From Escherichia phage BEBK14: a stretch of DNA of 50,853 bases. The stretch lies in sequence record MN158214.1. One strand, written 5' to 3'. The position numbers and the translations under genes are program-made. The notes beneath the pieces were generated by a model, which did no database searches, was not told the origin of the DNA, and saw nothing but the letters and a program-made list of their open reading frames with translations. This document shows, piece by piece, positions 5,524 to 48,983 of this stretch. Every line of letters starts with the position of its first letter. Position 1 is the stretch's first letter.

Positions 5524-5581
5524 AACTGTCTCTTTTAATAAGCCATTAGGCGTGTATAATACACACGTTCAAAAGCTATTT

Positions 5582-5598
5582 TTAACAAAAAGTGCTAT
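5582..5598 (-). promoter_or_regulatory. 17-bp box copy in divergent region
   Basis: TATTAT ~21 bp downstream toward helicase; opposite face abuts RBS/ATG of 5609 gene. Confidence 0.45.
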
Positions 5599-5608
5599 GA
5601 GGTGCAAA

Positions 5609-6085
5609 ATGAAAGAAAAGCGAATCGCGGCCTATACTGGTGAGATTGACAAGAGAACATTGAACGGCAACAACGGAACGCGACGCGGCAAGGACAAGAA
5701 GCCACGCAAGCCGCGCACCGGATATTACATACTGAAAGAAGAAGTAAAAGCCGGACTGACCGCTCGCCTTGATATTCTTCTGGAGTATTTCGGAGGTGTG
5801 GCAAATATGGCTCGTCGATTGGGAGTATCCCAGCAAACTGTAAATATGTGGCGCAAGCGCGGGATGATTTCAGCGATGGGCGCACAACGCGTGCATAATG
5901 ACTACAAATATAATGGCTGTAAAGGCTATCGCGCATCATTCTGTCGCCCGGATCTAAAATTCGACTCAAACGGTAAGCCGCTTGTTACACGTTGCGAACG
6001 TCGTGAGATGTTGCGAGTGGTAACGATGCGCGATTATGAACCTGGCGGAATATTTTACAAAGAACCAAAAAGCACAAATAGCTAA
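5609..6085 (+). CDS. HTH DNA-binding protein (putative transcriptional regulator)
   Basis: ATG 5609 follows box copy and GAGGTG RBS; HTH-like segment GVANMARRLGVSQQTVNMWRKRG. Confidence 0.5.
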   Translation: MKEKRIAAYTGEIDKRTLNGNNGTRRGKDKKPRKPRTGYYILKEEVKAGLTARLDILLEYFGGVANMARRLGVSQQTVNMWRKRGMISAMGAQRVHNDYKYNGCKGYRASFCRPDLKFDSNGKPLVTRCERREMLRVVTMRDYEPGGIFYKEPKSTNS

Positions 6086-6142
6086 AGTTAATTGCCTGGC
6101 GTGGTTTATCATTGCCAGGCTTTTTCTTGTATGAGGTTTACA

Positions 6143-7054
6143 ATGCACTACGACAAAGACGAAGTTTTACCGCGTATGCTTGGAATGTGGCAAACTGCAT
6201 TAATGAAACTATGCAATGCGCCTCAATCTTTCTTTAATGGCAAGCATCAACCGTGCCTGTATTGTGGTGGCAAAGATCGCGCTCGTTGGACTAACCAACT
6301 CGCAAAGAAAGGTGATGGCGGCAATATCTGCAACGTATGCGGTAACGATAGCGGGATCGGGTTGTTTATGCGATTGCGCGGGGAAAGCTATAGCGAAGCA
6401 ATTAACACGCTGGGCGACTGGCTCAATCTCGTTCCGGTCGAAGTGGTGGCAAAGGCTAACAAGATAGCGTCGCGCTCGTCAGGCTACAATTTCGGGAAGC
6501 AGGCCAGCCATGAATGCTGTGAAAGAGTAATGGCAAAGACGCTTAAATTTGATCGCACTCCTTTAAGCGTATTTGAAGGAATCTACCCGCCTGATGATGG
6601 TCATTACGATTGCGGCGTTAAGGATGGGCGATACATTCACGCGCTTCCGTGCCGACTTGTTCACGAAGACGGCGTGGATGATGAGATGTGCAATATTCTC
6701 TTTATCACCGAGGAAGGCGATAAATCATTTCTGGCAAAGGATTACACGCGCGGATCGGTTGTTGTAACTGGTAGCACAGATAAGACGATCTATTTGTGCA
6801 CTGACTGGGTAAATGCTCAGCATGTGCACCTTGCGACGGGGCAAGAAGTATGGACGTGCTACAATAACTACAATCTTGAGATGGTTGCCCACAGATACAA
6901 AGGAAATCGAAAGATGCGCGTCGTATGCCATAAAGATGATCGGGATGTAATAATCGCCGCCGATGAAAGAAACCTTGATGTTATGCTGCCGATTGGTGGA
7001 AACTTCAAAAATGGCATTGAGAAAAAACTTTACAAGCCTGAATCGCTTTTATAA
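6143..7054 (+). CDS. DNA primase (primase Zn-ribbon + Toprim-like)
   Basis: PCLYCGGKDRARWT...CNVCGN zinc ribbon typical of P4/T7-type primases; downstream acidic Toprim-like motifs; GAGG RBS before ATG 6143. Confidence 0.6.
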   Translation: MHYDKDEVLPRMLGMWQTALMKLCNAPQSFFNGKHQPCLYCGGKDRARWTNQLAKKGDGGNICNVCGNDSGIGLFMRLRGESYSEAINTLGDWLNLVPVEVVAKANKIASRSSGYNFGKQASHECCERVMAKTLKFDRTPLSVFEGIYPPDDGHYDCGVKDGRYIHALPCRLVHEDGVDDEMCNILFITEEGDKSFLAKDYTRGSVVVTGSTDKTIYLCTDWVNAQHVHLATGQEVWTCYNNYNLEMVAHRYKGNRKMRVVCHKDDRDVIIAADERNLDVMLPIGGNFKNGIEKKLYKPESLL

Positions 7055-7149: not shown

Positions 7150-7166
7150 TTAGCAAAAAGTGCTAT
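7150..7166 (-). promoter_or_regulatory. 17-bp box copy (variant TTAGCA; no -10 partner)
   Basis: between terminator 7095..7118 and RBS/ATG of fibre gene; orientation opposite to flanking genes. Confidence 0.35.
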
Positions 7167-7183
7167 ACAGGAGAAAATTACAG

Positions 7184-9145
7184 ATGGCAATTTATCGCAA
7201 AGGTCAAGCGTCAATGGACGCTCAAGGCTATATAACTGGCTACGGGACGAACTGGCGTGAGCAGTTAACGCTGATCCGTTCCGGCGCAACCATTATTTTT
7301 CTGACTCAGCCGCTACAGGCCGCAGTTATCACCGAAGTGGTCAACGATACTAGCATTCGAGCAATCACCACTGGTGGTGCTGTTGTTCCCCGTTCAGACT
7401 ACATAATCTTGCTTCATGACTCGTTAACTGTTGATGGCCTGGCGCAAGACGTAGCGGAAACATTGCGCTACTACATGGGGAAAGAGTCGGAGCTTGCTGG
7501 ATTTATTGAGATCATCAAGGATTTTGATTGGGATAAGTTACAGAAGATCCAAGAAGACGTAAAGACAAATGCTGACGCAGCAGCAGCAAGCCAGCAGGCA
7601 GCTAAAACCAGCGAGAATAACGCGAAGACAAGCGCAACAAATGCAGCGAATAGCAAGAAAGGCGCTGATACTGCAAAGGCTGCCGCTGAATCCGCGCGCG
7701 ACGCTGCAAACACTGCAAAGACTGGCGCTGAAGCAGCAAAGTCTGGCGCTGAATCCGCGCGTGACGCTGCGAACACTGCAAAGGCAGGAGCTGAAAGTGC
7801 GCGAGATCAAGCGGAGGAATACGCAAAGCAGGCCGCAGAACCTTACAAGGACTTATTGCAACCGTTGCCGGACGTGTGGATACCATTTAATGATTCCCTG
7901 GATATGATTACCGGATTCTCGCCGTCATACAAAAAGATTGTCATAGGTGATGATGAGATCACGATGCCAGGTGACAAGATTGTTAAGTTTAAACGTGCAT
8001 CAACCGCTACTTACATTAACAAATCAGGTGTTTTTACAGTTGCAGCAATTGATGAACCACGTTTTGAAAGAGATGGATTGCTGATTGAAGGGCAGAGAAC
8101 AAACCATATGATTAATGCTTCAACTCCTGCTGGTTGGGGTCGCTCAGCTTCTGTGCAAGTGACAGCGAATACAGATTCATTTGGATTTCTTTATGGTCGC
8201 TTCGCTCCAGATCAGTCTACTGTTGGCAAAACAGATGCGCTAAACCTTGCATCTGTTATTTCTAATCACAGCCTTGATACATCTGGCAATGAAAAAAATG
8301 TTACTGCTTCATGCAGATTTAGATCAGATAAAGATGTTAGATTGAGGGTAAGATTTGCCGCTGGCGATGATATTGGTAGTATAGCATTCGCTGGAGATGC
8401 TTACATAAAACTTAAAGATCTTTCAGTTCAAAAAACTGGAGGTGCTGCAAACAGAATTAATGTTGAGGTTTACACTGATGATCTTGCTGGATGGAATATT
8501 GCAATTGTTACATTCCAGGCAATAAAAAATAAGGTAAACGCTCAGTTTCAAATATCTCCAGTCTCTGCTTATGCCGAAGGTGATTATCTTGAATTGTCAA
8601 CCCCTCAAGTTGAATTGGGATCTGGTGCTTCTTCTTATATTCAATCAGGTACGACACCAGCCACAAGGGCAAGCGATATGGTTACAGTGCCAATAAAAAA
8701 CAACCTTTACAATTTGCCGTTTACAGTTCTTGTGGAGGCTCATAAAAACTGGAGTAGAACGCCAAATGCTGCGCCTCGTGTTTTCGATACTGGAGGTCAT
8801 CAATCTGGTGCGGGAATTATTCTTGCTTTCGGGTCTGCCGAAGGCGATGCTGATGGATTCCCTTATTGCGATATAGGTAAATCAAACAGAAGGGTTAACG
8901 AGAATGCGAAACTAAAAAAGATGATCATAGGAATGAGAGTAAAGAGTGATTACAATACTTGTTGTGTAAGTAATGCCAGAATATCAAGCGAAACAAAAAC
9001 GGAATGGAGATATATAGTATCAACGGCTACTATAAGGATTGGCGGACAAACAAGTACAGGCGAACGCCATCTTTTCGGGCACGTTAGAAACTTCCGTATA
9101 TGGCACAAGGCGCTAACAGATCATCAATTGGGGGAAATTGTTTAA
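7184..9145 (+). CDS. tail fibre protein
   Basis: Ala/Lys-rich coiled-coil repeats (AESARDAANTAK x2) followed by large beta-rich C-terminal domain. Confidence 0.55.
   Translation: MAIYRKGQASMDAQGYITGYGTNWREQLTLIRSGATIIFLTQPLQAAVITEVVNDTSIRAITTGGAVVPRSDYIILLHDSLTVDGLAQDVAETLRYYMGKESELAGFIEIIKDFDWDKLQKIQEDVKTNADAAAASQQAAKTSENNAKTSATNAANSKKGADTAKAAAESARDAANTAKTGAEAAKSGAESARDAANTAKAGAESARDQAEEYAKQAAEPYKDLLQPLPDVWIPFNDSLDMITGFSPSYKKIVIGDDEITMPGDKIVKFKRASTATYINKSGVFTVAAIDEPRFERDGLLIEGQRTNHMINASTPAGWGRSASVQVTANTDSFGFLYGRFAPDQSTVGKTDALNLASVISNHSLDTSGNEKNVTASCRFRSDKDVRLRVRFAAGDDIGSIAFAGDAYIKLKDLSVQKTGGAANRINVEVYTDDLAGWNIAIVTFQAIKNKVNAQFQISPVSAYAEGDYLELSTPQVELGSGASSYIQSGTTPATRASDMVTVPIKNNLYNLPFTVLVEAHKNWSRTPNAAPRVFDTGGHQSGAGIILAFGSAEGDADGFPYCDIGKSNRRVNENAKLKKMIIGMRVKSDYNTCCVSNARISSETKTEWRYIVSTATIRIGGQTSTGERHLFGHVRNFRIWHKALTDHQLGEIV
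7685..7783. repeat. 63-bp period direct repeat inside tail-fibre gene
   Basis: GCTGAATCCGCGCG(C/T)GACGCTGC(A/G)AACACTGCAAAG at 7685..7720 and 7748..7783. Confidence 0.7.
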
Positions 9146-12443: not shown

Positions 12444-12560
12444 GATTAGCCCTCATTGGTTGGTATGCCTGCATTTTAGCTATTTGATGCGTTTAGTCAA
12501 TAGGTGATTTGTTTTTTCTGTTTTCTAAACGCTTCTTTTGGGCTTAAGAACAAAATCTGA

Positions 12561-12790
12561 TTATAAGTGATTGAATATCAGGTTGTTATTTTTCTGTTCT
12601 CGCGTTCGCGTATCTGCTCAGCTTTATACATACATATGCAATACACAGTGAGCATCTGTAATTACATAAATCAATACACTCACCAAACATGCTACACACC
12701 ACAACCCAATGAAACACAGAGAACAAATAAAAACAAATATAGATACATAGATAAATAAACTCTTTATTTTTTATGTATATAGATGATTTT
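12561..12790. other. AT-rich divergent control region A with GTTCGCG repeats and poly-purine/AT block
   Basis: no ORFs; TTATAAGTG...GTTATTTT...GTTCTCGCGTTCGCG and ATACATAGATAAATAAACTCTTTATTTT blocks homologous to 43022..43350. Confidence 0.55.
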
Positions 12791-12880
12791 ACTGTCTATT
12801 GTTTGTCCAATTTGTGTTTAAGTTTTGCGCTAAAATTAAGGAGGTGTGAATTTGATAACAAGCGAGAACAGAAAAAACAA

Positions 12881-12897
12881 ATAGCACTTTTTGCTAA
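12881..12897 (+). promoter_or_regulatory. 17-bp box copy (variant TTGCTAA)
   Basis: TATAGT at 12918..12923, 20 bp downstream; precedes lipoprotein gene. Confidence 0.5.
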
Positions 12898-12954
12898 ACT
12901 CGATGTTCAAGATCTTGTATAGTTGGAAACAACAACAACTAAGGAGATACAAAG

Positions 12955-13224
12955 ATGAAAAAATTAATCGCAGTTATCGCCACCGTAGCCGCTCTGACCG
13001 GATGCGCAGCGTCGCCTACTGGCAGCTTCAAAAAGATCGATTGCACGGCAAAATTTAACGTTAAAACATTCCCTGTTAACGGATTCCATGAAGTCAAAAT
13101 TAATGCAGTACGCGAAAACAGATTCAGCCAAAAGCAATACAGGTTGAGCGTTGACAATAAAGAAGTTAAATTTATCAACCGCTGGCAAAATGAAAGTAAA
13201 TTTATTGATTTGAGGTGTAATTAA
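12955..13224 (+). CDS. lipoprotein, possible Cor-like superinfection exclusion protein
   Basis: signal peptide + lipobox LTGC; 89 aa; sits beside tail-fibre/J region as cor does in T1-like phages. Confidence 0.45.
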   Translation: MKKLIAVIATVAALTGCAASPTGSFKKIDCTAKFNVKTFPVNGFHEVKINAVRENRFSQKQYRLSVDNKEVKFINRWQNESKFIDLRCN

Positions 13225-23907: not shown

Positions 23908-23924
23908 ATAGCATTTTTTGTTAA
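23908..23924 (+). promoter_or_regulatory. 17-bp box copy
   Basis: between major-tail terminator and G-like gene RBS; TAGATT 22 bp away on plus strand (antisense to late genes). Confidence 0.35.
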
Positions 23925-27700: not shown

Positions 27701-28543
27701 TTAAGTGCCTACTGTTTTCCTGAACACTATGTCAAACTGATCAGCAACTCCAGAACCGTCGTTTGCAGTCCAGTTAACATTAACATGACCACCTACTCCA
27801 GTAGGAACTACAAGACCAGTGCGACTAACGCTTGCAACCTTTGGATCTTGCTCGTTTGTAATCGTCCACTGCCCCGTTTTGTCGTCAGCCCATGTTGGAA
27901 CAACGGTTACTTTTAGCTGAACGTTGTCAATTGTTTCTGTTCCCTCTACATAACCATTTTCGGCCTCAATGATCGCACCAGTAAGAAGGTATTTTCTATG
28001 ATGAAGCGGCGTTATTCTGACTCCGACTATGTTCATTGTTTCATCAAACTTGTAAAAGTCACCAGTAAAAATCCAGCCATCGACGATTTCATCCCCATCA
28101 CTACTTGCTACAAAGCCATCATTGTTAACATAAACAAGATCGCCATGTTCAGGCGCAGACTCAATCGTTTGAGTTAAGCACCATACAACCCCTCTTGTTA
28201 AAATGTTGATAGAATCTCCTTCCTTATAGTCAGAGTATCCGTCTTCCTCGTTAACCGTTGTCGTGATATTGCTCCTTATGGCAACACCAGCAACCACAGC
28301 ATCACCCTCTTTGTGATCAACAAATATGTTGTAACCTTCAACTCTTTCTTTAAAGAAAACAACCTTTCCAGCAATGATGGATTCAGAACCGCAAACTCCA
28401 ACTCTTTCTTTAAAGAAAACAACCTTTCCAGCAATGATGGATTCAGAACCGCAAACTCCAGTGCCATCAATGTTGTAGCGAGTAGAATCAACCAGGCATC
28501 CAGGACAGGAAAGCCCCATAACAGATGAGTAATCTTTAGCCAT
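27701..28543 (-). CDS. structural (head decoration-like) protein with C-terminal Ig-like domain
   Basis: N-terminus paralogous to 28595..29104; Ig-like C-terminal segment; contains 60-bp tandem duplication. Confidence 0.5.
   Translation of the reverse strand: MAKDYSSVMGLSCPGCLVDSTRYNIDGTGVCGSESIIAGKVVFFKERVGVCGSESIIAGKVVFFKERVEGYNIFVDHKEGDAVVAGVAIRSNITTTVNEEDGYSDYKEGDSINILTRGVVWCLTQTIESAPEHGDLVYVNNDGFVASSDGDEIVDGWIFTGDFYKFDETMNIVGVRITPLHHRKYLLTGAIIEAENGYVEGTETIDNVQLKVTVVPTWADDKTGQWTITNEQDPKVASVSRTGLVVPTGVGGHVNVNWTANDGSGVADQFDIVFRKTVGT
28341..28460. repeat. perfect 60-bp tandem duplication (2 copies), in-frame within 27701..28543
   Basis: 28341..28400 identical to 28401..28460; duplicates 20 aa GVCGSESIIAGKVVFFKERV. 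Confidence 0.9.
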
Positions 28544-28568
28544 CTCATTTCTCCTTACATAATAAAAA

Positions 28569-28588
28569 AAGGCGCTCAAGCGAGCGCC
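28569..28588 (-). terminator. rho-independent terminator candidate
   Basis: AGGCGCTCAAGCGAGCGCCT preceded by A7 on plus. Confidence 0.55.
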
Positions 28589-29120: not shown

Positions 29121-30233
29121 TTATTTCAGTTTAGCAAAGCGAGCGTTTGGATTAAGAGGCTTGTCTTCGTCTTCCTTATTGGAACAGAAAGAGTCACCCT
29201 TAACTGCTTGTCTCTGCGCTGCCATTTTATCAGAAGTCTTCGCAATATCGAAAGCGGTTTCGATGTAAGCGTCAGCCTTGTCTGATACGTCCGCACCAGT
29301 AACCTCTTTGATGTAAGCAACTTTGATTGCTTTTGCGTCCAGGCCGTCGCACTTGATGCCAATCTCTGTAGCGTCAGCAACAAGCGCGGCGTGCGCTTCT
29401 GCGTCAGCTTTGGCCTGCTTCACAGCTTCTTCAATCTTAGCCGGAATGCCATCAACCTTAGCCTGCAATGCGTCGCGCTCTGCCTCAAGTGATGCAGCCT
29501 TGTCTTTCTCAGCTTTGGCATCAGCTTTCAGGTTGTCAATGTGCGCAGCAACTTCTTTCGGCACATCAAATTCTACAGCTCCATCAAGTTTAATTTTAAC
29601 GTTCATTTTTTCATCCTCTTTGTTTGAAATATCCTCGTCACTATACGGAAAATCTTGCTCACTATCAAGGTTTAGTTTAGCGACTCCGGCACGACCACGG
29701 AAAACTAGCGCGATATGATTAACTCTGATGTTCGTCTGAATGGCATCGAACTTAACCCAATCAGGAGAATCCGGTTTCCAATCTTCTTTCATATCTTCTT
29801 CAAAGATATATTCTCCTGTTTGATTATTTCCCCAGCCTGGCTTATCAATATCAACGGAAGTGTAACCCACAGAGATTTCCGCAGTGGCGCGCTTCTTCGC
29901 GCTGTCAATCGCGCGTTTAGAGTAAATGCTTAACGGCACTTCTACCCCGATCCCGTTTGGAACGCCAGCGCCAGCACAGGAACCAACAACCACTTTTTCC
30001 GCGTTCTCAGGCGTGACGGTAACATGCCCGATAGTGATCGGCTTGCCTGCGAACGTCTCCAGGGAGTCGGCCTTGAATACCTCTGACGCTGGGCGAAATT
30101 CACGTCGAACGCCGAAAGGAGTTTGGTACTCCTGCAAACCGATACGCGCCACAATTGGGCGATCCACTAAAAATCCGTTATCGTCAAAGTGCGCTTTGAC
30201 GCGCACACTATCAAACCTTTGTTTTGCCTTCAT
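29121..30233 (-). CDS. prohead protease / scaffolding protein
   Basis: N-terminal domain resembling DUF2213-type prohead proteases, C-terminal Ala/Lys-rich coiled coil. Confidence 0.55.
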   Translation of the reverse strand: MKAKQRFDSVRVKAHFDDNGFLVDRPIVARIGLQEYQTPFGVRREFRPASEVFKADSLETFAGKPITIGHVTVTPENAEKVVVGSCAGAGVPNGIGVEVPLSIYSKRAIDSAKKRATAEISVGYTSVDIDKPGWGNNQTGEYIFEEDMKEDWKPDSPDWVKFDAIQTNIRVNHIALVFRGRAGVAKLNLDSEQDFPYSDEDISNKEDEKMNVKIKLDGAVEFDVPKEVAAHIDNLKADAKAEKDKAASLEAERDALQAKVDGIPAKIEEAVKQAKADAEAHAALVADATEIGIKCDGLDAKAIKVAYIKEVTGADVSDKADAYIETAFDIAKTSDKMAAQRQAVKGDSFCSNKEDEDKPLNPNARFAKLK

Positions 30234-30247
30234 TAATTAGTCTCCTG

Positions 30248-30994
30248 TTAATCCCATTTTGGAATAGCCCAACAACGACAACCAAATTCCTCGCCAGGGA
30301 AAACATGGTTTTCACTCAGCCGAATCAGTTTACCTTCCCACTGGACGTGTTTCAATCGCTCGCGCTCGTCTAACATCCCGTGCCAGTAATAGGCAGACAC
30401 TCCGGCATCATAAAGGCGCTGGCGCATTAGACGACTGTTCCATGCGCCAACCATATTTTCCGCCCTGGTCTTTCCCCATGAACTATAGACGGCGAATCGT
30501 TTCTCAGCCAGTTCATTAACCTGTTTGTCACTGCTTCCTCGAAAGTTGGCGCTGCGTATATTTGTTGACCAGTCAGAAACGATGTTAGTAAACAGCTTTC
30601 TCAGGGATGATTCAGTAAGTCCGATCCATTGACCGTATAACGTCCTATACCATTCCTCTTGTGCGTTAGCGCCGACCGCGATCAGAACAATGACAGCTAC
30701 GTTATCTTTGCCGCCAGTAGCGCGCGCGATGTTAATAAACTGCTGCGCATTGAATTTGTAGATCGCCAGTGCGATAGCCGGAAGGCTTGAAACGATGGCG
30801 CTGATTAAGTCGGTAGACAGATTGTTGATCTCATCCTCTGCCGCGTTAATCTCTGCGTCGCTTGCGTCAAATTTCATTGCCTTTGTCCGGCGGCGCATCA
30901 GCACAACCAGATCTCGAATCGCCTCCTGAATTGAGCGGCTTAATTGCCGCTCGCTGGCTTCAGGAAAGCGCCATTGTTTAACGGCGCGTTTCAT
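30248..30994 (-). CDS. head morphogenesis protein (SPP1 gp7 / Mu F-like)
   Basis: position directly after portal; 248 aa. Confidence 0.6.
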   Translation of the reverse strand: MKRAVKQWRFPEASERQLSRSIQEAIRDLVVLMRRRTKAMKFDASDAEINAAEDEINNLSTDLISAIVSSLPAIALAIYKFNAQQFINIARATGGKDNVAVIVLIAVGANAQEEWYRTLYGQWIGLTESSLRKLFTNIVSDWSTNIRSANFRGSSDKQVNELAEKRFAVYSSWGKTRAENMVGAWNSRLMRQRLYDAGVSAYYWHGMLDERERLKHVQWEGKLIRLSENHVFPGEEFGCRCWAIPKWD

Positions 30995-33929: not shown

Positions 33930-34457
33930 TTAGATATTATCCAGAATATCGCGTACAGCCTCGCGCACTTCCTCAGCCGTCACGGATTCGATGCTGGAAT
34001 CAGCCGTGGCCTCAACGTTGATGCTTGCTGGCTTGTCTATTCCGATCTCTTTGCCGATTAAGCCAGGGTTAATCATGTTGTGAGCGGCAAGCTGAAATTT
34101 TTGCTCAAATACAACGGAATCAATAAACGCCATAACATCGCTGTAACCTGGGAGTTTTCGCAGTCTCTGGATGTTGCTGTCAGAGATACCGGAAAACAAA
34201 GAAAATCCGGTCAGCGTAAACACTCGCGGCTTATGCACTTTGCTTTCATACACATCGCCCTGGAAAGATGCCGTTTCTGCCGCCTGGATGTGGTTTTGTT
34301 CTGCCCAGGTGAAGTAACGCACAGCCAGATCGAAAATCTGTTCCGGTGTGTATCGGCTGCTGGCCTGCACGGTGACAATATCTCCGTATTTCTTGTTATA
34401 TAGTTCCTTGAAGTTTTGAACCTTCACTACTGGCTCAGGATTGCGTGCCATAATCAT
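33930..34457 (-). CDS. terminase small subunit
   Basis: position upstream of TerL; start set at internal ATG after AGGAG RBS. Confidence 0.5.
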   Translation of the reverse strand: MIMARNPEPVVKVQNFKELYNKKYGDIVTVQASSRYTPEQIFDLAVRYFTWAEQNHIQAAETASFQGDVYESKVHKPRVFTLTGFSLFSGISDSNIQRLRKLPGYSDVMAFIDSVVFEQKFQLAAHNMINPGLIGKEIGIDKPASINVEATADSSIESVTAEEVREAVRDILDNI

Positions 34458-34510
34458 TTCTCCTTTTTGATAACAGGGCATCATTATAGCAAATAACAGG
34501 CAATAAAAAA

Positions 34511-34535
34511 CCCGCCATAAAGGCGGGCTGTTTTT
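34511..34535. terminator. bidirectional terminator candidate
   Basis: CCCGCC...GGCGGG flanked by A6 and T5. Confidence 0.5.
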
Positions 34536-34537
34536 CG

Positions 34538-34780
34538 TCACTCAAGCAATTTGTATTCCACTTTTCCGTCCATTGCTTTGATGTGCTTGTGAATTTCCTG
34601 TCCGATCCGCAGGTATCGACCGCGAACATGCCATTTCTCATCCTTGCTTGAGTAAATGGCAAACGCCGCCTTGCCTTTACGTGCAAGATGAGCTATTGCG
34701 ACTGACGTCAGGCATCCCCATGCAAATGCGCCAGCAATAAAGGTGAGGATATAACTTAAAACAAATAGTAACGTACTCAT
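34538..34780 (-). CDS. small membrane protein
   Basis: N-terminal hydrophobic segment; terminator follows. Confidence 0.4.
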   Translation of the reverse strand: MSTLLFVLSYILTFIAGAFAWGCLTSVAIAHLARKGKAAFAIYSSKDEKWHVRGRYLRIGQEIHKHIKAMDGKVEYKLLE

Positions 34781-42528: not shown

Positions 42529-42990
42529 TCATTTCTCCTCGTTAACAAGATTGCGGATCATTTCCTGGTAGCGGCTTATTCCTTCGCAAGCTCCAGCCAG
42601 TTTATCGCCTTGCATATCGGTAACGTTTGGCATTGATGCAAGAATGCGAGCGGCGAACTTTTCTACCGCCTTTGCCTGGACGGCTGGCAAGTCTTCGCTC
42701 GTGATCACCTTGCGCTTAACGTCGCGATTCAGGCTGAAAACGTAAAACTTATCGTCTTCCGTTTCTTCCGTTCTGATTCGCACCTTTCCAACCGCTTTCA
42801 CTTCCGGCACGCGGTTGATTATTGTGCGGCTGTATGCCTGATTCTTTGTCACCTTGTAGTAGTCGTCGCCGTTTAACATTCCGGCAAGGTCGAGAACTGA
42901 CATTTTATGCTCTACAATCTCGCCGCTTGCAAGGCGTCGACCAAGCTCTCGCAACCAGTCGCAATAGTCTTTCGATGTTTTCTGACTCAT
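42529..42990 (-). CDS. hypothetical protein
   Basis: AGGAGG RBS; first gene of leftward early transcript from divergent region. Confidence 0.45.
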   Translation of the reverse strand: MSQKTSKDYCDWLRELGRRLASGEIVEHKMSVLDLAGMLNGDDYYKVTKNQAYSRTIINRVPEVKAVGKVRIRTEETEDDKFYVFSLNRDVKRKVITSEDLPAVQAKAVEKFAARILASMPNVTDMQGDKLAGACEGISRYQEMIRNLVNEEK

Positions 42991-43021
42991 TGTCATTCCT
43001 CCTGTTGGTCAGTTGCAGGCC

Positions 43022-43430
43022 ATTATAAGTGCTATTTTATGCGTGTCAATGTTTATTTTGTCCGTATAACGTTCGCGTCCTGTTCGCGTTGCCGAAGTTT
43101 TGAGAGAATCACTACATAACCACATGATTTGCAATAAGTTTTTACCGCTTGTTTTCTTTCTGTTCGCGCTGTTAGCGCAATATCGCAATAAAAGTATATA
43201 TACATACTCATTCCACCAGGCGCGCAACTATCCATATATATACCAACAAAGCGACACCGCAACCATCACATACCACACTAACAACGCTAACAAGAAATAA
43301 CACATAAATATATACATAAATAAATATTCTTTATTTTCAATGTATTATAAGGGATTTATTTTGTTTTTTGCGTTCGCAATACATTGAAAAACAGCGCGGA
43401 AACATGTCGCCCTGAAACGCGAACACGCAC
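43022..43430. other. AT-rich divergent control region B with GTTCGCG repeats (possible origin/operator region)
   Basis: GTTCGCG at 43071, 43082, 43162; CGCGAAC at 43418; ATACATAAATAAATATTCTTTATTTT block; no convincing ORF over ~720 bp. Confidence 0.55.
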
Positions 43431-43643
43431 GAACAAAATAAACAGCTTCTGTTTGCTGACGCCACCAGGACGAGGCGAGAGGGCAACTACTTTCTATACA
43501 CCCCGCCCCACATGATTAATCACATACGCAATCAATCGAAAAACCTGGTAAACGCATATCACACTAACCAATTTAACAGTTAAGCAACTTATTCCGATTA
43601 TTCTTTGAGCGTGGAATAACTGGAATAATGCACCAGGCATGGA

Positions 43644-43660
43644 ATAGCACTTTTTGTTAA
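43644..43660 (+). promoter_or_regulatory. 17-bp box copy
   Basis: TACATT 43682..43687, 21 bp downstream, then ACACACATCGAAAC; precedes first rightward early gene. Confidence 0.55.
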
Positions 43661-43722
43661 AACCGAATCATTCTGATCGGGTACATTACACACATCGAAA
43701 CAAACCGCTCAGGAGATAGCAA

Positions 43723-43995
43723 ATGAACATCAGTAAAACCACTTTCAATTTCGCTAAGCGTCACGGTCTGGATCTGACTGTTGAGAACTTAGGCGATGTT
43801 CTGCAACTCTGCATTTGGGAAGCAGATAACGATTGCGAGTGGCTTTGCTCTTATCGTATCAACTACGATTGCTTGACCTGGCACGGCAATATCTATCTGC
43901 CGCAAGAGGTGAAAGAAGAATTGCCAGCGACTATCAACAACGAAGTTTTCTTGCGCCGGGTGCTGAAATTTATCAGTGAGGAGATCAAGAAGTAA
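43723..43995 (+). CDS. hypothetical protein
   Basis: first gene of rightward early operon; GGAG RBS. Confidence 0.45.
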   Translation: MNISKTTFNFAKRHGLDLTVENLGDVLQLCIWEADNDCEWLCSYRINYDCLTWHGNIYLPQEVKEELPATINNEVFLRRVLKFISEEIKK

Positions 43996-47399: not shown

Positions 47400-48983
47400 A
47401 TGAATTTTTCATTTGAAACAAGTCAGTTATCACCGAAACAAATCATTGAAACCGCCGAATCTCAAGGTATTTCCCCTGTTCGTGTATCCATTCAGGCCAA
47501 CGGATACCGCCAATCTTCAAGCTATTGGGGTCAGGTGGAAGATATTAACGGCGGTAACGACCGCTACCCTGTCATTTCACTTGGGAATGATGTTGATGTA
47601 GTTGGTAAGCTGGCGCGCAATCTTGCGAGATCTGTTCAATTCCCTGAATCATCGGCCTACATGCACTTTATCGGATGTATTTCTGCCGCTATGCTTGGTC
47701 GATTCACAGTTGACTACCACGGAACAGATCAGCCGACCGCGCTTTACGTTGTGACAAGCCAGCCTCCGTCGGCAGGTAAATCCGCGATTAACAGTCTGGC
47801 TATTGCTCCTATGGTTGCAGAGGTTGATCGCATCAACGAGCAACGCAAGAAAGATCGAAAAAAGATACAGGCAAAACTTGCCGGACTACTAAAGGAGATG
47901 AAAAGCGAACGCTCCGGCGCAGATATGGAGATTCTATATCAAGAAAAAGAAGATCTGGAAGAAAAACTAAGCAAACTTTGCGATGTTGTTTTCCCTGTTT
48001 CCGACACAACGCCTGAGGGATTGGCAAAGATAAATAACAGGCAAGGCAACTTCGCGGTTATTTCTGATGAAGCAACCAGTATTAACAGTCTGCTTGGTCT
48101 GACTTACGCTAATAGCGAGCGCAAAACTAACAGCGAACTTGTGTTAAAAGCATGGGATCACGGCCATGTTTCTATCGCCCGTTCTAATGCAGACAATAAC
48201 ATGAGTTTTTTTGCGCTTGGATGTATGAGTGTTATCGCCCAGGATGAAACCATTAATGGCATCATGGATGCAGGATCTCGTGGCATCGGTGTAAGCGAGC
48301 GTTTTCTACTGGTGCGCGAACAGCCGTTAATCGGTACGCGTGTATTTGTGGATGAGAATGGTGATTCAACTTACGAACCAGTAGACGGTGAATTGAAAGC
48401 GCAATACTTTCAGTTGGTGCATAACATTATGAGCGAAATTAACGTTTCTCTGAAAGTTAGCCGTTCTGCAATGCGCGTGCTGAACATTGCACGCCAGGAT
48501 ATGGAACCGCATCTTGCCGACGGCGGAAAGTATTCGCATACGATGCTACGCGGTGCGCTGGGTAAAATGGATAAGCAGGTGATCCGCATTGCTGCCGTTC
48601 TGCATGTGATACGCAATTGGTTTAATCCTGCTGGATACCCGCAAAAGTCTAGAGAGATTGACGTTGACACGATGCAAGAAGCCTTGCTGATGTTCCATGA
48701 ATTGAGCAAAACGTATATCAGCGCGGCGAACGCGTCAGGCTATGCTGGTGATGATGCCGAGATGTCAAAACTGATTGAGTTAATCACCCGCCACGGTAAG
48801 GCAAATAAAGGCGTATTGAATGTCCGCGCTTTGTATGAGGCAGCACGCAAGGTAAAACCTTTCCTGGGGCAAGCTGGCGTGATGAAGCGCATAGAATCGC
48901 AACTGCTTCCGATGCTTGAGCAAAAAAACTACGTTTGTGTTATTAATGGTGTTATTTTTGTGAATCCTGTGTTAATGGGGTAA
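47400..48983 (+). CDS. P-loop NTPase, DUF3987/YfjI-like
   Basis: Walker A-like QPPSAGKS and Walker B-like VISDE; 527 aa. Confidence 0.45.
   Translation: MNFSFETSQLSPKQIIETAESQGISPVRVSIQANGYRQSSSYWGQVEDINGGNDRYPVISLGNDVDVVGKLARNLARSVQFPESSAYMHFIGCISAAMLGRFTVDYHGTDQPTALYVVTSQPPSAGKSAINSLAIAPMVAEVDRINEQRKKDRKKIQAKLAGLLKEMKSERSGADMEILYQEKEDLEEKLSKLCDVVFPVSDTTPEGLAKINNRQGNFAVISDEATSINSLLGLTYANSERKTNSELVLKAWDHGHVSIARSNADNNMSFFALGCMSVIAQDETINGIMDAGSRGIGVSERFLLVREQPLIGTRVFVDENGDSTYEPVDGELKAQYFQLVHNIMSEINVSLKVSRSAMRVLNIARQDMEPHLADGGKYSHTMLRGALGKMDKQVIRIAAVLHVIRNWFNPAGYPQKSREIDVDTMQEALLMFHELSKTYISAANASGYAGDDAEMSKLIELITRHGKANKGVLNVRALYEAARKVKPFLGQAGVMKRIESQLLPMLEQKNYVCVINGVIFVNPVLMG

Follow-up and report, generated by a model that had tools for sequence, protein, structure and literature searches.

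A conserved non-coding region between two early operons of a T1-like coliphage appears to combine outward promoters, a candidate iteron-type origin unit and a separate packaging-start segment

Introduction

T1 is one of the original T phages, and T1-like phages are notorious laboratory contaminants; to our knowledge, the T1 replication origin, its early regulation and its exact packaging signal (pac) have never been defined. The present work concerns a gap of 726 bases at positions 42997-43722 in the genome of Escherichia phage BEBK14 (MN158214.1), the whole 50,853-nucleotide (nt) stretch of which is referred to below as the window. We report that this gap, which is flanked by the two early operons of a T1-like coliphage, is a conserved non-coding region of early control. 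It is best read as a composite of two outward-facing promoters, an iteron-like origin unit with the adjacent DUF7174 protein as its likely partner, and a separate segment from which packaging would start.

Origins with short repeats around an AT-rich segment are well described. In the SaPI ori two repeat sets flank an AT-rich region, and the record of phage P4 annotates "ori type 1 repeats", (C)TGTTCACC, in both ori and crr, the latter including the tandem CTGTTCACA CTGTTCACC. For T1 and TLS, headful packaging from a pac site is documented, and the published pac position comes from restriction mapping; the TLS pac was placed in this way at low resolution and then fixed on AGATTT by analogy with the P22 pac motif (PMC11447400). 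The same 2024 re-annotation of TLS described a 21-nt repeat at 18 intergenic places, to which no function was assigned, and its authors searched for a replication origin and found none (PMC11447400). Apart from that study, the literature that we searched held no data on the origin, the transcription starts or the precise pac of T1-like phages. For T1 and TLS, the gap, its pac content and the 21-nt box had thus been described before; the literature searched did not contain the origin-like anatomy, its duplication elsewhere in the genome (region A), its behavior as a cassette or its resemblance to the P4 iterons.

An initial annotation of the window described one non-coding region of ~720 bp with GTTCGCG repeats and read it as an origin or operator array. 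All motifs it listed are present where it placed them, and the candidate pair was well chosen, as relatives show an origin-like anatomy beside a co-varying gene. Its observations are therefore confirmed and its interpretation is supported in part. It did not notice that the right part of the region corresponds to the T1/TLS pac, and the single non-coding region in fact consists of two independently assorting modules that are split at ~43445.

Results

The 901 bases around the gap are 98% identical to those of Escherichia phages WaterSpirit and MatMar and 96–99% identical to those of BabyEgg and Jahat_MG145. The classified close relatives of the window belong to the Drexlerviridae, Tempevirinae, Warwickvirus, and on the strength of this comparison we assign the window to Warwickvirus, which makes it a T1-like phage. 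The gap separates a leftward gene (42996..42529), encoding a Pfam DUF7174 protein, from a rightward gene (43723..43995, PHROG 6147), each of which heads a run of small genes that we refer to as the leftward and rightward early operons. T1 and TLS have a homologous gap of ~700–780 nt with the same two operons on its sides.

To compare its anatomy we used the gaps of other Warwickviruses, those of TLS and T1, and those of a dozen viral contigs. The parts follow a constant order, which runs from a leftward promoter through two to three short direct repeats, a TATATACATA-like element, a CA-rich tract, an AT-rich core, two to four inverted copies of the same repeat and a variable segment to a promoter marked by the 21-nt box. 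This layout is kept in all lineages examined, with both subfamilies sampled, despite a changing repeat sequence.

In the window GTTCGCG occurs on the plus strand at 43071, 43082 and 43162, with its complement CGCGAAC at 43418 and the variant GCGTTCGC at 43370-43377. The first two copies are part of the plus-strand direct repeats CGTTCGCG (43070-43077) and CTGTTCGCG (43080-43088), which lie just upstream of the −35 hexamer of the leftward promoter P_L. This pair (43070..43088) represents extra, lineage-specific copies that are absent from the tonijn group, and the site conserved across the family is the tandem iteron-like pair CTGTTCGCG CTGTTAGCG (43160..43177, plus strand), which has a 9-nt period and a constant position. 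Its equivalents are CTGTTCACG CTGTTAACG in tonijn, CTGTTCACG TGTTCACG in TLS, two copies of CTGTTAACG in W011D, two of TGTTATC in L008 and L016, and three of CGTGTTAATC in T1. The inverted copies occupy 43416..43445 on the minus strand and comprise AACGCGAACA (43416-43425), CACGAACA (43428-43435) and AAATAAACAG (43436-43445). The window thus has several short repeats in a defined arrangement, with three direct and two to three inverted copies, and equivalent sets are present in relatives.

Although the repeat sequence varies by lineage, the left and right sets agree inside each lineage. This window pairs direct CTGTTCGCG on the left with inverted CGCGAACA on the right, tonijn pairs CTGTTCACG and CTGTTAACG with GTGAACA and GTAACAG, TLS pairs TGTTCACG with CGTGAAC, L008 and 2019SD1 pair TGTTATC with GATAACA, and T1 pairs its three copies of CGTGTTAATC with GATTAACACG. 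GTTCGCG is therefore lineage-specific; as a conserved motif in its own right it does not hold up, being absent from most relatives, and what is conserved is the TGTT core and its placement. When TGTT[AC] was scored for orientation in 17 regions, the left flanks contained 32 plus and 10 minus copies and the right flanks 14 plus and 31 minus copies (Fisher p=3.6e-5, a rough guide because the sequences are related and the flanks compositionally skewed). Some material was set aside in this part of the analysis: TGTT 9-mers listed automatically with a view to tabulating covariation, which were too noisy to use; copies of TGTTCGCG at 34621 and 36558, which are located within small genes and were treated as chance; and a 13-nt perfect inverted repeat at 43334/43378, which is not conserved in the tonijn group.

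Between the two repeat sets, a block at 43191..43240 that holds GTATATATACATA and GCGCGCAACTATCCATATATATA is near-invariant among Warwickviruses, and an element of the form TATATA[CG]ATA follows the left repeats in most lineages. Next comes the CA-rich, strand-asymmetric tract (43241..43300, plus strand; A29 C20 G5 T6), the composition of which is kept in relatives and in region A while its sequence varies. The AT-rich core (43300..43375), which is the proposed DNA-unwinding element and includes an IHF-like site, is conserved across subfamilies and between region A and the gap (region B) with the consensus ATATATATAA.TAA.T.ATT.ATTT...TATA.TATAT.AG. Windows of 100 nt spanning 43251-43400 contain 72–78% A+T, among the highest values in the window. 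Together with its family-wide conservation, this composition is that of the AT-rich region adjacent to the repeats of iteron origins, where the strands would melt. Of the central parts, the core alone can still be matched in distant genera, for example that of Klebsiella phage Samwise, and it is conserved far better than the neighboring DUF7174 gene. IHF-like sites with one mismatch number four as compared with 1.1 expected, and the exact IHF consensus, as read by eye from aligned sequences, is found in several other lineages. The region contains no Fis or LexA boxes; a near-consensus LexA box in T1 has no counterpart in the window.

P_L is predicted on the minus strand at 43022..43049, where TTGACA (43049-43044), a 16-nt spacer and TATAAT (43027-43022) match the sigma-70 consensus at 12 of 12 positions. 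It lies 26 nt before the leftward start codon, with the ribosome-binding site cctcct at 42999-43004, and the two hexamers are kept among the aligned Warwickviruses as well as in most of the other lineages. With −35 and −10 hexamers at the 16–18 nt spacing of this promoter class, P_L is probably an active sigma-70 promoter.

A natural exchange shows which of these parts move together. Contigs 025133 and 032316 are 90–100% identical on both sides of a swapped segment, in which the divergence starts precisely at the 3' end of the DUF7174 gene and stops ~281 nt short of the rightward gene. Within this stretch the two contigs have different repeat classes (TGTTATC versus TGTTCACG), and identity in the AT-rich core remains at 77–83%. 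The same right-hand boundary, ~281 nt upstream of the right gene and equivalent to ~43445 in the window, is seen in a second pair, 017938 versus 2019SD1. This boundary divides the gap and its left neighbor into module 1 (42529-43445), which contains the DUF7174 gene, P_L, the repeats, the CA-rich tract, the AT-rich core and the inverted copies, and module 2, which contains the pac region and the rightward promoter P_R. As judged from these alignments, related phages exchange module 1 as one cassette.

The DUF7174 gene (42529..42996, minus strand) is the first of the leftward early operon and encodes 155 amino acids (Pfam DUF7174 E=2.5e-50; PHROG 4841). Across the repeat difference between 025133 and 032316 the small terminase retains 99% identity, the winged helix at the C terminus of the helicase differs by one residue in the last 80, and the Cro-like protein (5609-6085) differs at two residues, while DUF7174 is only 30% identical. 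We therefore rejected the helicase winged helix, the Cro-like helix-turn-helix protein and the small terminase as readers of the variable repeats, since each is identical or nearly so in phages with different repeats. Among the proteins compared, DUF7174 alone tracks the repeat type, which makes it the candidate repeat binder. Its homologues, all of them unnamed proteins on contigs of up to ~53 kb (the longest have the size of a T1-like genome), are hypervariable, with identities of 14–69% among relatives. One contig (L194, Logan SRR28172390, 51982 nt) carries at 1001-1462 a chimeric DUF7174 gene that joins a tonijn-type N-terminal half to a C-terminal half of the window type, and the repeats of this contig are of the tonijn type, as is the N-terminal half of its DUF7174. 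This natural chimera indicates recombination within the gene. A near-invariant stretch of the protein reads Y-x-R-[T/Q]-x4-R-V-P-E-V, in which T at the variable position accompanies TGTTC- or TGTT..CG-type repeats and Q accompanies TGTTATC, a correspondence that is suggestive at most, given the small sample and the physical linkage of gene and repeats.

The initial annotation had noted an AT-rich block shared between the gap and region A. The core at 43300-43375 indeed matches 12735-12800, but the likeness extends much further, as region A (12444..12955, between an exonuclease VIII-like gene on the minus strand and a cor-like lipoprotein gene on the plus strand) is a full, if shorter, paralogue of module 1 together with a box promoter. 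Its parts are ordered as in region B: a leftward promoter, CTGTTCTCG CGTTCGCG (12594-12610), TATACATACATA, a CA-rich tract, an AT-rich core, an inverted CGAGAACAG (12862-12870) and a box at 12881. Region A has divergent promoters of its own, as predicted, and is without the variable segment of module 2. It is also present in T1 (29851-30377), where its repeats are TGTTACAC, and in other relatives.

A comparable arrangement was found in a distant 48-kb phage, L128, which has the same replication genes, including a DUF3987 protein 36% identical to the helicase of the window, and a Terminase_3 instead of a Terminase_6 enzyme. A divergent gap of 477 nt in L128 (9306-9783), separated from the DUF3987 gene by one small gene, contains direct and inverted GGGGAAGG (also AAAAGGGTT) repeats that flank an AT-rich core. 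Its presence despite the other terminase family argues that the architecture travels with replication genes and not with packaging genes.

Taken together, these data lead us to propose that module 1 is an iteron-type replication origin with DUF7174 as its cognate binder, a reading to which we assign a probability of about 45%. It is supported because the repeats, CA-rich tract and AT-rich core between outward promoters are kept across lineages, because the core is better conserved than the neighboring gene while the cassette is swapped and DUF7174 alone tracks the repeats, because iteron plasmid replicons and the lambda O-ori cassette have their parts in this order, because the repeats resemble the P4 type-1 iterons and the phage primase is homologous to the N-terminal part of P4 alpha, and because L128 shares the replication genes and has its own repeat-flanked AT-rich core alongside a different terminase. 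The search of the TLS authors, moreover, left the role of origin unassigned. Under this proposal host RNA polymerase would start at the consensus P_L, leading to synthesis of the DUF7174 protein, which would bind CTGTTCGCG-type repeats in direct orientation to the left and in inverted orientation to the right of the core. An IHF-like bend and negative supercoiling from the two outward early promoters may help the core to melt, whereupon the MCM-like helicase (47400-48983) and the P4-alpha-type primase (6092-7054) could load, and region A might serve as a second origin or as a helper site like P4 crr. We also consider it possible, as a more tentative extension, that DUF7174 represents a new kind of small origin-binding initiator at a T1-like origin, which would recognize P4-like TGTTC repeats and recruit the MCM-like helicase and alpha-type primase, with origin and initiator exchanged as one specificity cassette and region A acting as a second origin or a crr-like enhancer.

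Several points weigh against module 1 being an origin, the link of which to replication is drawn from sequence comparison. DUF7174 has no detectable similarity to initiator or DNA-binding families and no relatives in PDB or among other Pfam families, and its winged-helix-like pattern is no more than our reading of the sequence by eye. The gene adjoins the repeats, so the co-variation could be plain linkage, and virulent phages often devote their first early genes to anti-defence functions that evolve fast, which would account for the variability of DUF7174 as well. With so short a core as TGTT and with flanks rich in T or A, the orientation bias may be partly compositional. In the 025133/032316 pair, moreover, the repeats of region A do not follow the class of those in region B. 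We found no DnaA box better than one mismatch, with such boxes occurring at background rate, and no GATC cluster. The cumulative GC-skew minimum at 43–44 kb coincides with the point where gene orientation switches, and it is not independent evidence because skew tracks gene orientation.

The most serious alternative, though in our view a rather unlikely one, is that module 1 is an autoregulatory operator cassette in which DUF7174 binds the repeats around its own promoter, loops across the AT-rich core and shuts off or times early transcription. The swappable immunity regions of lambdoid phages are a natural analogue, and a gene exchanged together with its sites is how a regulator and its operators behave. 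In addition, the repeats at 43070-43088 sit 20–40 nt upstream of the P_L −35 hexamer, the inverted repeat of region A abuts a box promoter, and the TLS authors weighed regulatory roles for repeats in these genomes (PMC11447400). An operator cassette would leave unexplained, however, why different cassettes keep the AT-rich core and the CA-rich tract and why both recur in region A, where there is no adjacent DUF7174 gene, and a third divergent junction in the window (5524-5608) works without any such module. The origin and operator readings are not mutually exclusive because the initiators of iteron replicons commonly repress their own promoters.

It is less probable still that the repeats reflect chance or drift in a T-rich or A-rich promoter spacer in which only the promoters and AT-rich upstream DNA matter. 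Such drift would account for the absence of GTTCGCG from most relatives, and the short TGTT core is common in T-rich DNA. Over the whole window GTTCGCG is not over-represented, with 10 copies as compared with 8.9 expected, but four of the ten lie in these 726 bases. In dinucleotide-preserving shuffles of the region, any G+C-rich 7-mer occurred four times in 16 of 3000 cases, and the figure for 8-mers was 63 of 3000; the test is only moderately strong, and a chance cluster of GTTCGCG is unlikely. Nowhere else in the window are such patterns as dense, with three copies of TGTTC.CG per 450 nt against a window mean of 0.15 (standard deviation 0.43), and CTGTT is likewise densest here. Drift would furthermore not be expected to leave many lineages with tandem pairs in one and the same place and with inverted copies that match them across the core (TGTTATC/GATAACA; CGTGTTAATC/GATTAACACG).

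Module 2 spans 43446-43722 in full and includes the box-type promoter of the rightward operon; its variable segment (43446..43640) is found in region B alone. The T1 record, which annotates 1-2800 as a terminal repeat, and the TLS record both start inside the homologous gap, at 162 nt (T1) and 195 nt (TLS) upstream of the homologous rightward gene. Transferred to the window, these genome ends correspond to ~43528-43561 in the variable segment, ~100–150 nt to the right of the inverted repeats. Our reading, which depends on transferred positions, is that module 2 contains the start of packaging (pac) at the place to which it was mapped for T1 and TLS. The segment also contains a palindrome, TGATTAATCA (43513-43522), and just upstream of the box promoter a TTATTCC/GGAATAA array (43589-43646) that reads TTATTCC-N-(T)TATTC ... 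GGAATAA-N-GGAATAA ... GGAATAG. The array is shared with T1, L011, L016 and L018, other repeats take its place in the tonijn group and TLS, and its closeness to the T1 genome end makes it a candidate terminase or regulator site.

In the pac of P1 and in pacL/pacR of SPP1 the small terminase binds repeats on both sides of the cleavage region, and this raises the alternative that the GTTCGCG repeats are themselves the recognition part of pac. The T1 and TLS ends inside the homologous gap are in keeping with such a role, and repeats placed around a central region resemble the layout of P1 pac. We nonetheless consider terminase recognition of these repeats decidedly unlikely. The mapped ends lie in module 2 and not among the repeats; the repeats fail to co-vary with the small terminase, which is 97–99% identical in two phage pairs that differ in repeat class; the module recurs at region A, yet T1 has one known pac site; and L128, with its other terminase family, has an analogous architecture by its replication genes. 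As for the terminase genes of the window, the small subunit (33930-34541) is 99–100% identical in four records alone (WaterSpirit being the one listed) and at most ~67% identical in all other T1-like phages, and the adjoining large subunit is 91–94% identical in the closest contigs. One search for related loci with the small terminase as query found no relatives.

The initial annotation had seen no convincing open reading frame in the gap, and this is borne out. None of the six internal open reading frames has a PHROG match, whereas both flanking genes do; an insertion of 2 nt at 43201 in the 95% identical BabyEgg would shift the three overlapping frames; the tonijn group has 23-nt and 12-nt indels; and no genes are annotated in the gap in the records of tonijn, FritzSarasin and swan01. 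Rfam returned nothing for the gap at the gathering threshold or at E<=1, and RNA folding z-scores of only −1.4 and −2.2 are unremarkable. With neither a conserved reading frame nor a conserved RNA structure found in the gap, it is scarcely credible that the region encodes small proteins or a small RNA, even though the automatic annotation of WaterSpirit and BabyEgg places four or five small genes there.

At its right end the gap leads into the predicted rightward early promoter region (43644..43722, plus strand), with a box copy at 43644-43663 that reads ATAGCACTTTTTGTTAAAAC, a −10-like TACATT (43682-43687), the ribosome-binding site AGGAG (43711-43715) and the ATG at 43723. This segment is ~95% conserved across Warwickviruses and 81–89% in more than 100 Drexlerviridae records. 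The initial annotation had placed the region between divergent operons and ended it in a box ahead of the rightward operon; the box does lie 79 nt before the ATG and has the same orientation as transcription, in line with what the TLS paper reports for its repeat (~76 nt before the start codon). In all, the window has 17 box copies, each followed ~39–45 nt later by a TAtAaT-like hexamer. The box has the form ATAGCACTTTTTGTTAAAA, a CATCGAAAC-like motif comes after the hexamer, and examples are found at 2042-, 5598-, 12881+, 36854-, 42267-, 44728+, 46652+ and 49496+. Copies at 23908 and 27657 on the plus strand are antisense to the surrounding late genes, and in several copies (2042, 46652, 49496) a GCCCGAC...GTCGGGC hairpin lies between box and −10. 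A sigma-54 reading of the box was ruled out by eye, as the spacing is 2 nt too short and the GG is missing.

Further observations were made elsewhere in the window and in the database matches. A 60-nt tandem duplication (97% identical) at 28333-28452 lies inside open reading frame 27701..28579, and 63-nt (21-codon) tandem repeats at 7655-7780 lie inside the long open reading frame 7160..9145. About 14 contigs of 20–38 kb, mostly 30–36 kb (loci L034-L047), encode a 49–50% identical homologue of the first rightward gene, and in most of them it sits exactly at one contig end, which suggests another element family with assembled ends at that gene. Between 15 and 22 "Campylobacter phage" records (MG0656xx) match the coliphage region and its terminase at 63–87% identity; such matches are odd for Campylobacter hosts and contaminating T1-like coliphages may be their cause.

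Discussion

With this analysis an unannotated gap of ~700 bases, present in hundreds of Drexlerviridae genomes, becomes a testable map that comprises a promoter pair, an origin-like unit of repeats and AT-rich DNA with DUF7174 as its candidate binder, a second copy 30 kb away, and a packaging segment. If the map is correct, it would give a function to the Pfam family DUF7174, show how replication specificity modules are shuffled among virulent phages, and help in the engineering or containment of T1-like phages.

Compared with known systems, the locus is the same as the genome-end (pac) region of T1 and TLS in that both records start within the homologous gap. It differs in that no recognition element has been defined there and in that the equivalent position in the window falls in module 2 and not among the GTTCGCG repeats. 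The box copy at 43644-43663 is an exact member of the 21-nt intergenic repeat of TLS and T1-like phages (aaATAGCACnnnTTGnTAAAA), from which it differs in nothing.

The likeness to P4 is seen in the DNA and in the primase. The window repeat TGTTCGCG matches the P4 type-1 iteron TGTTCACC at six of eight positions, and the window tandem CTGTTCGCG CTGTTAGCG has the same 9-nt register as P4 crr. The repeats of relatives are closer still, with CTGTTCACG found among them and those of tonijn and TLS (TGTTCACG or TGTTCACC) matching at seven to eight of eight positions. Both systems also have direct and inverted copies and two separated cis elements, although in the window 30 kb separate the two, each of which is flanked by divergent promoters. 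The primase (6092-7054) aligns with residues 13-263 of P4 alpha (E=1e-10), the zinc-ribbon/Toprim part, with a common zinc-ribbon Pfam domain. The alpha C-terminal origin-binding winged helix (Pox_D5) has no equivalent that we could detect in the window: tblastn of alpha residues 600-777 gave nothing significant (best E=0.06), and hhalign of Pox_D5 against DUF7174 and against the helicase winged helix gave a probability of 0.2. The helicase, rather than being of the D5/SF3 type and fused to the primase, is a separate DUF3987 protein (47400-48983), the model of which (predicted local distance difference test score, pLDDT, 88) resembles MCM subunits (best Foldseek E=1e-4, TM-score ~0.34). Its best matches are eukaryotic and archaeal MCM subunits and its C-terminal winged helix is like those of MCM4 and MCM8; Foldseek on that C-terminal domain alone returned generic winged helices only. 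Since the likeness is at the level of DNA and primase, and the origin-binding domain of alpha was not found, the region resembles the P4 system but does not belong to it.

As for iteron replicons, the adjacent DUF7174 protein (~150 amino acids) is unlike the Rep, O or RepA families, no DnaA box better than one mismatch was found in the region, the repeats are few and only 8–9 nt long, and the role in replication is proposed from anatomy. The order of the parts, however, is the same as in pSC101-type plasmids and in the lambda ori with its O gene, namely an AT-rich region with a (here putative) IHF-type site, repeats, a promoter and an adjacent gene. In lambdoid phages, too, the iterons and the initiator co-vary as an exchangeable cassette in which the AT-rich part is conserved.

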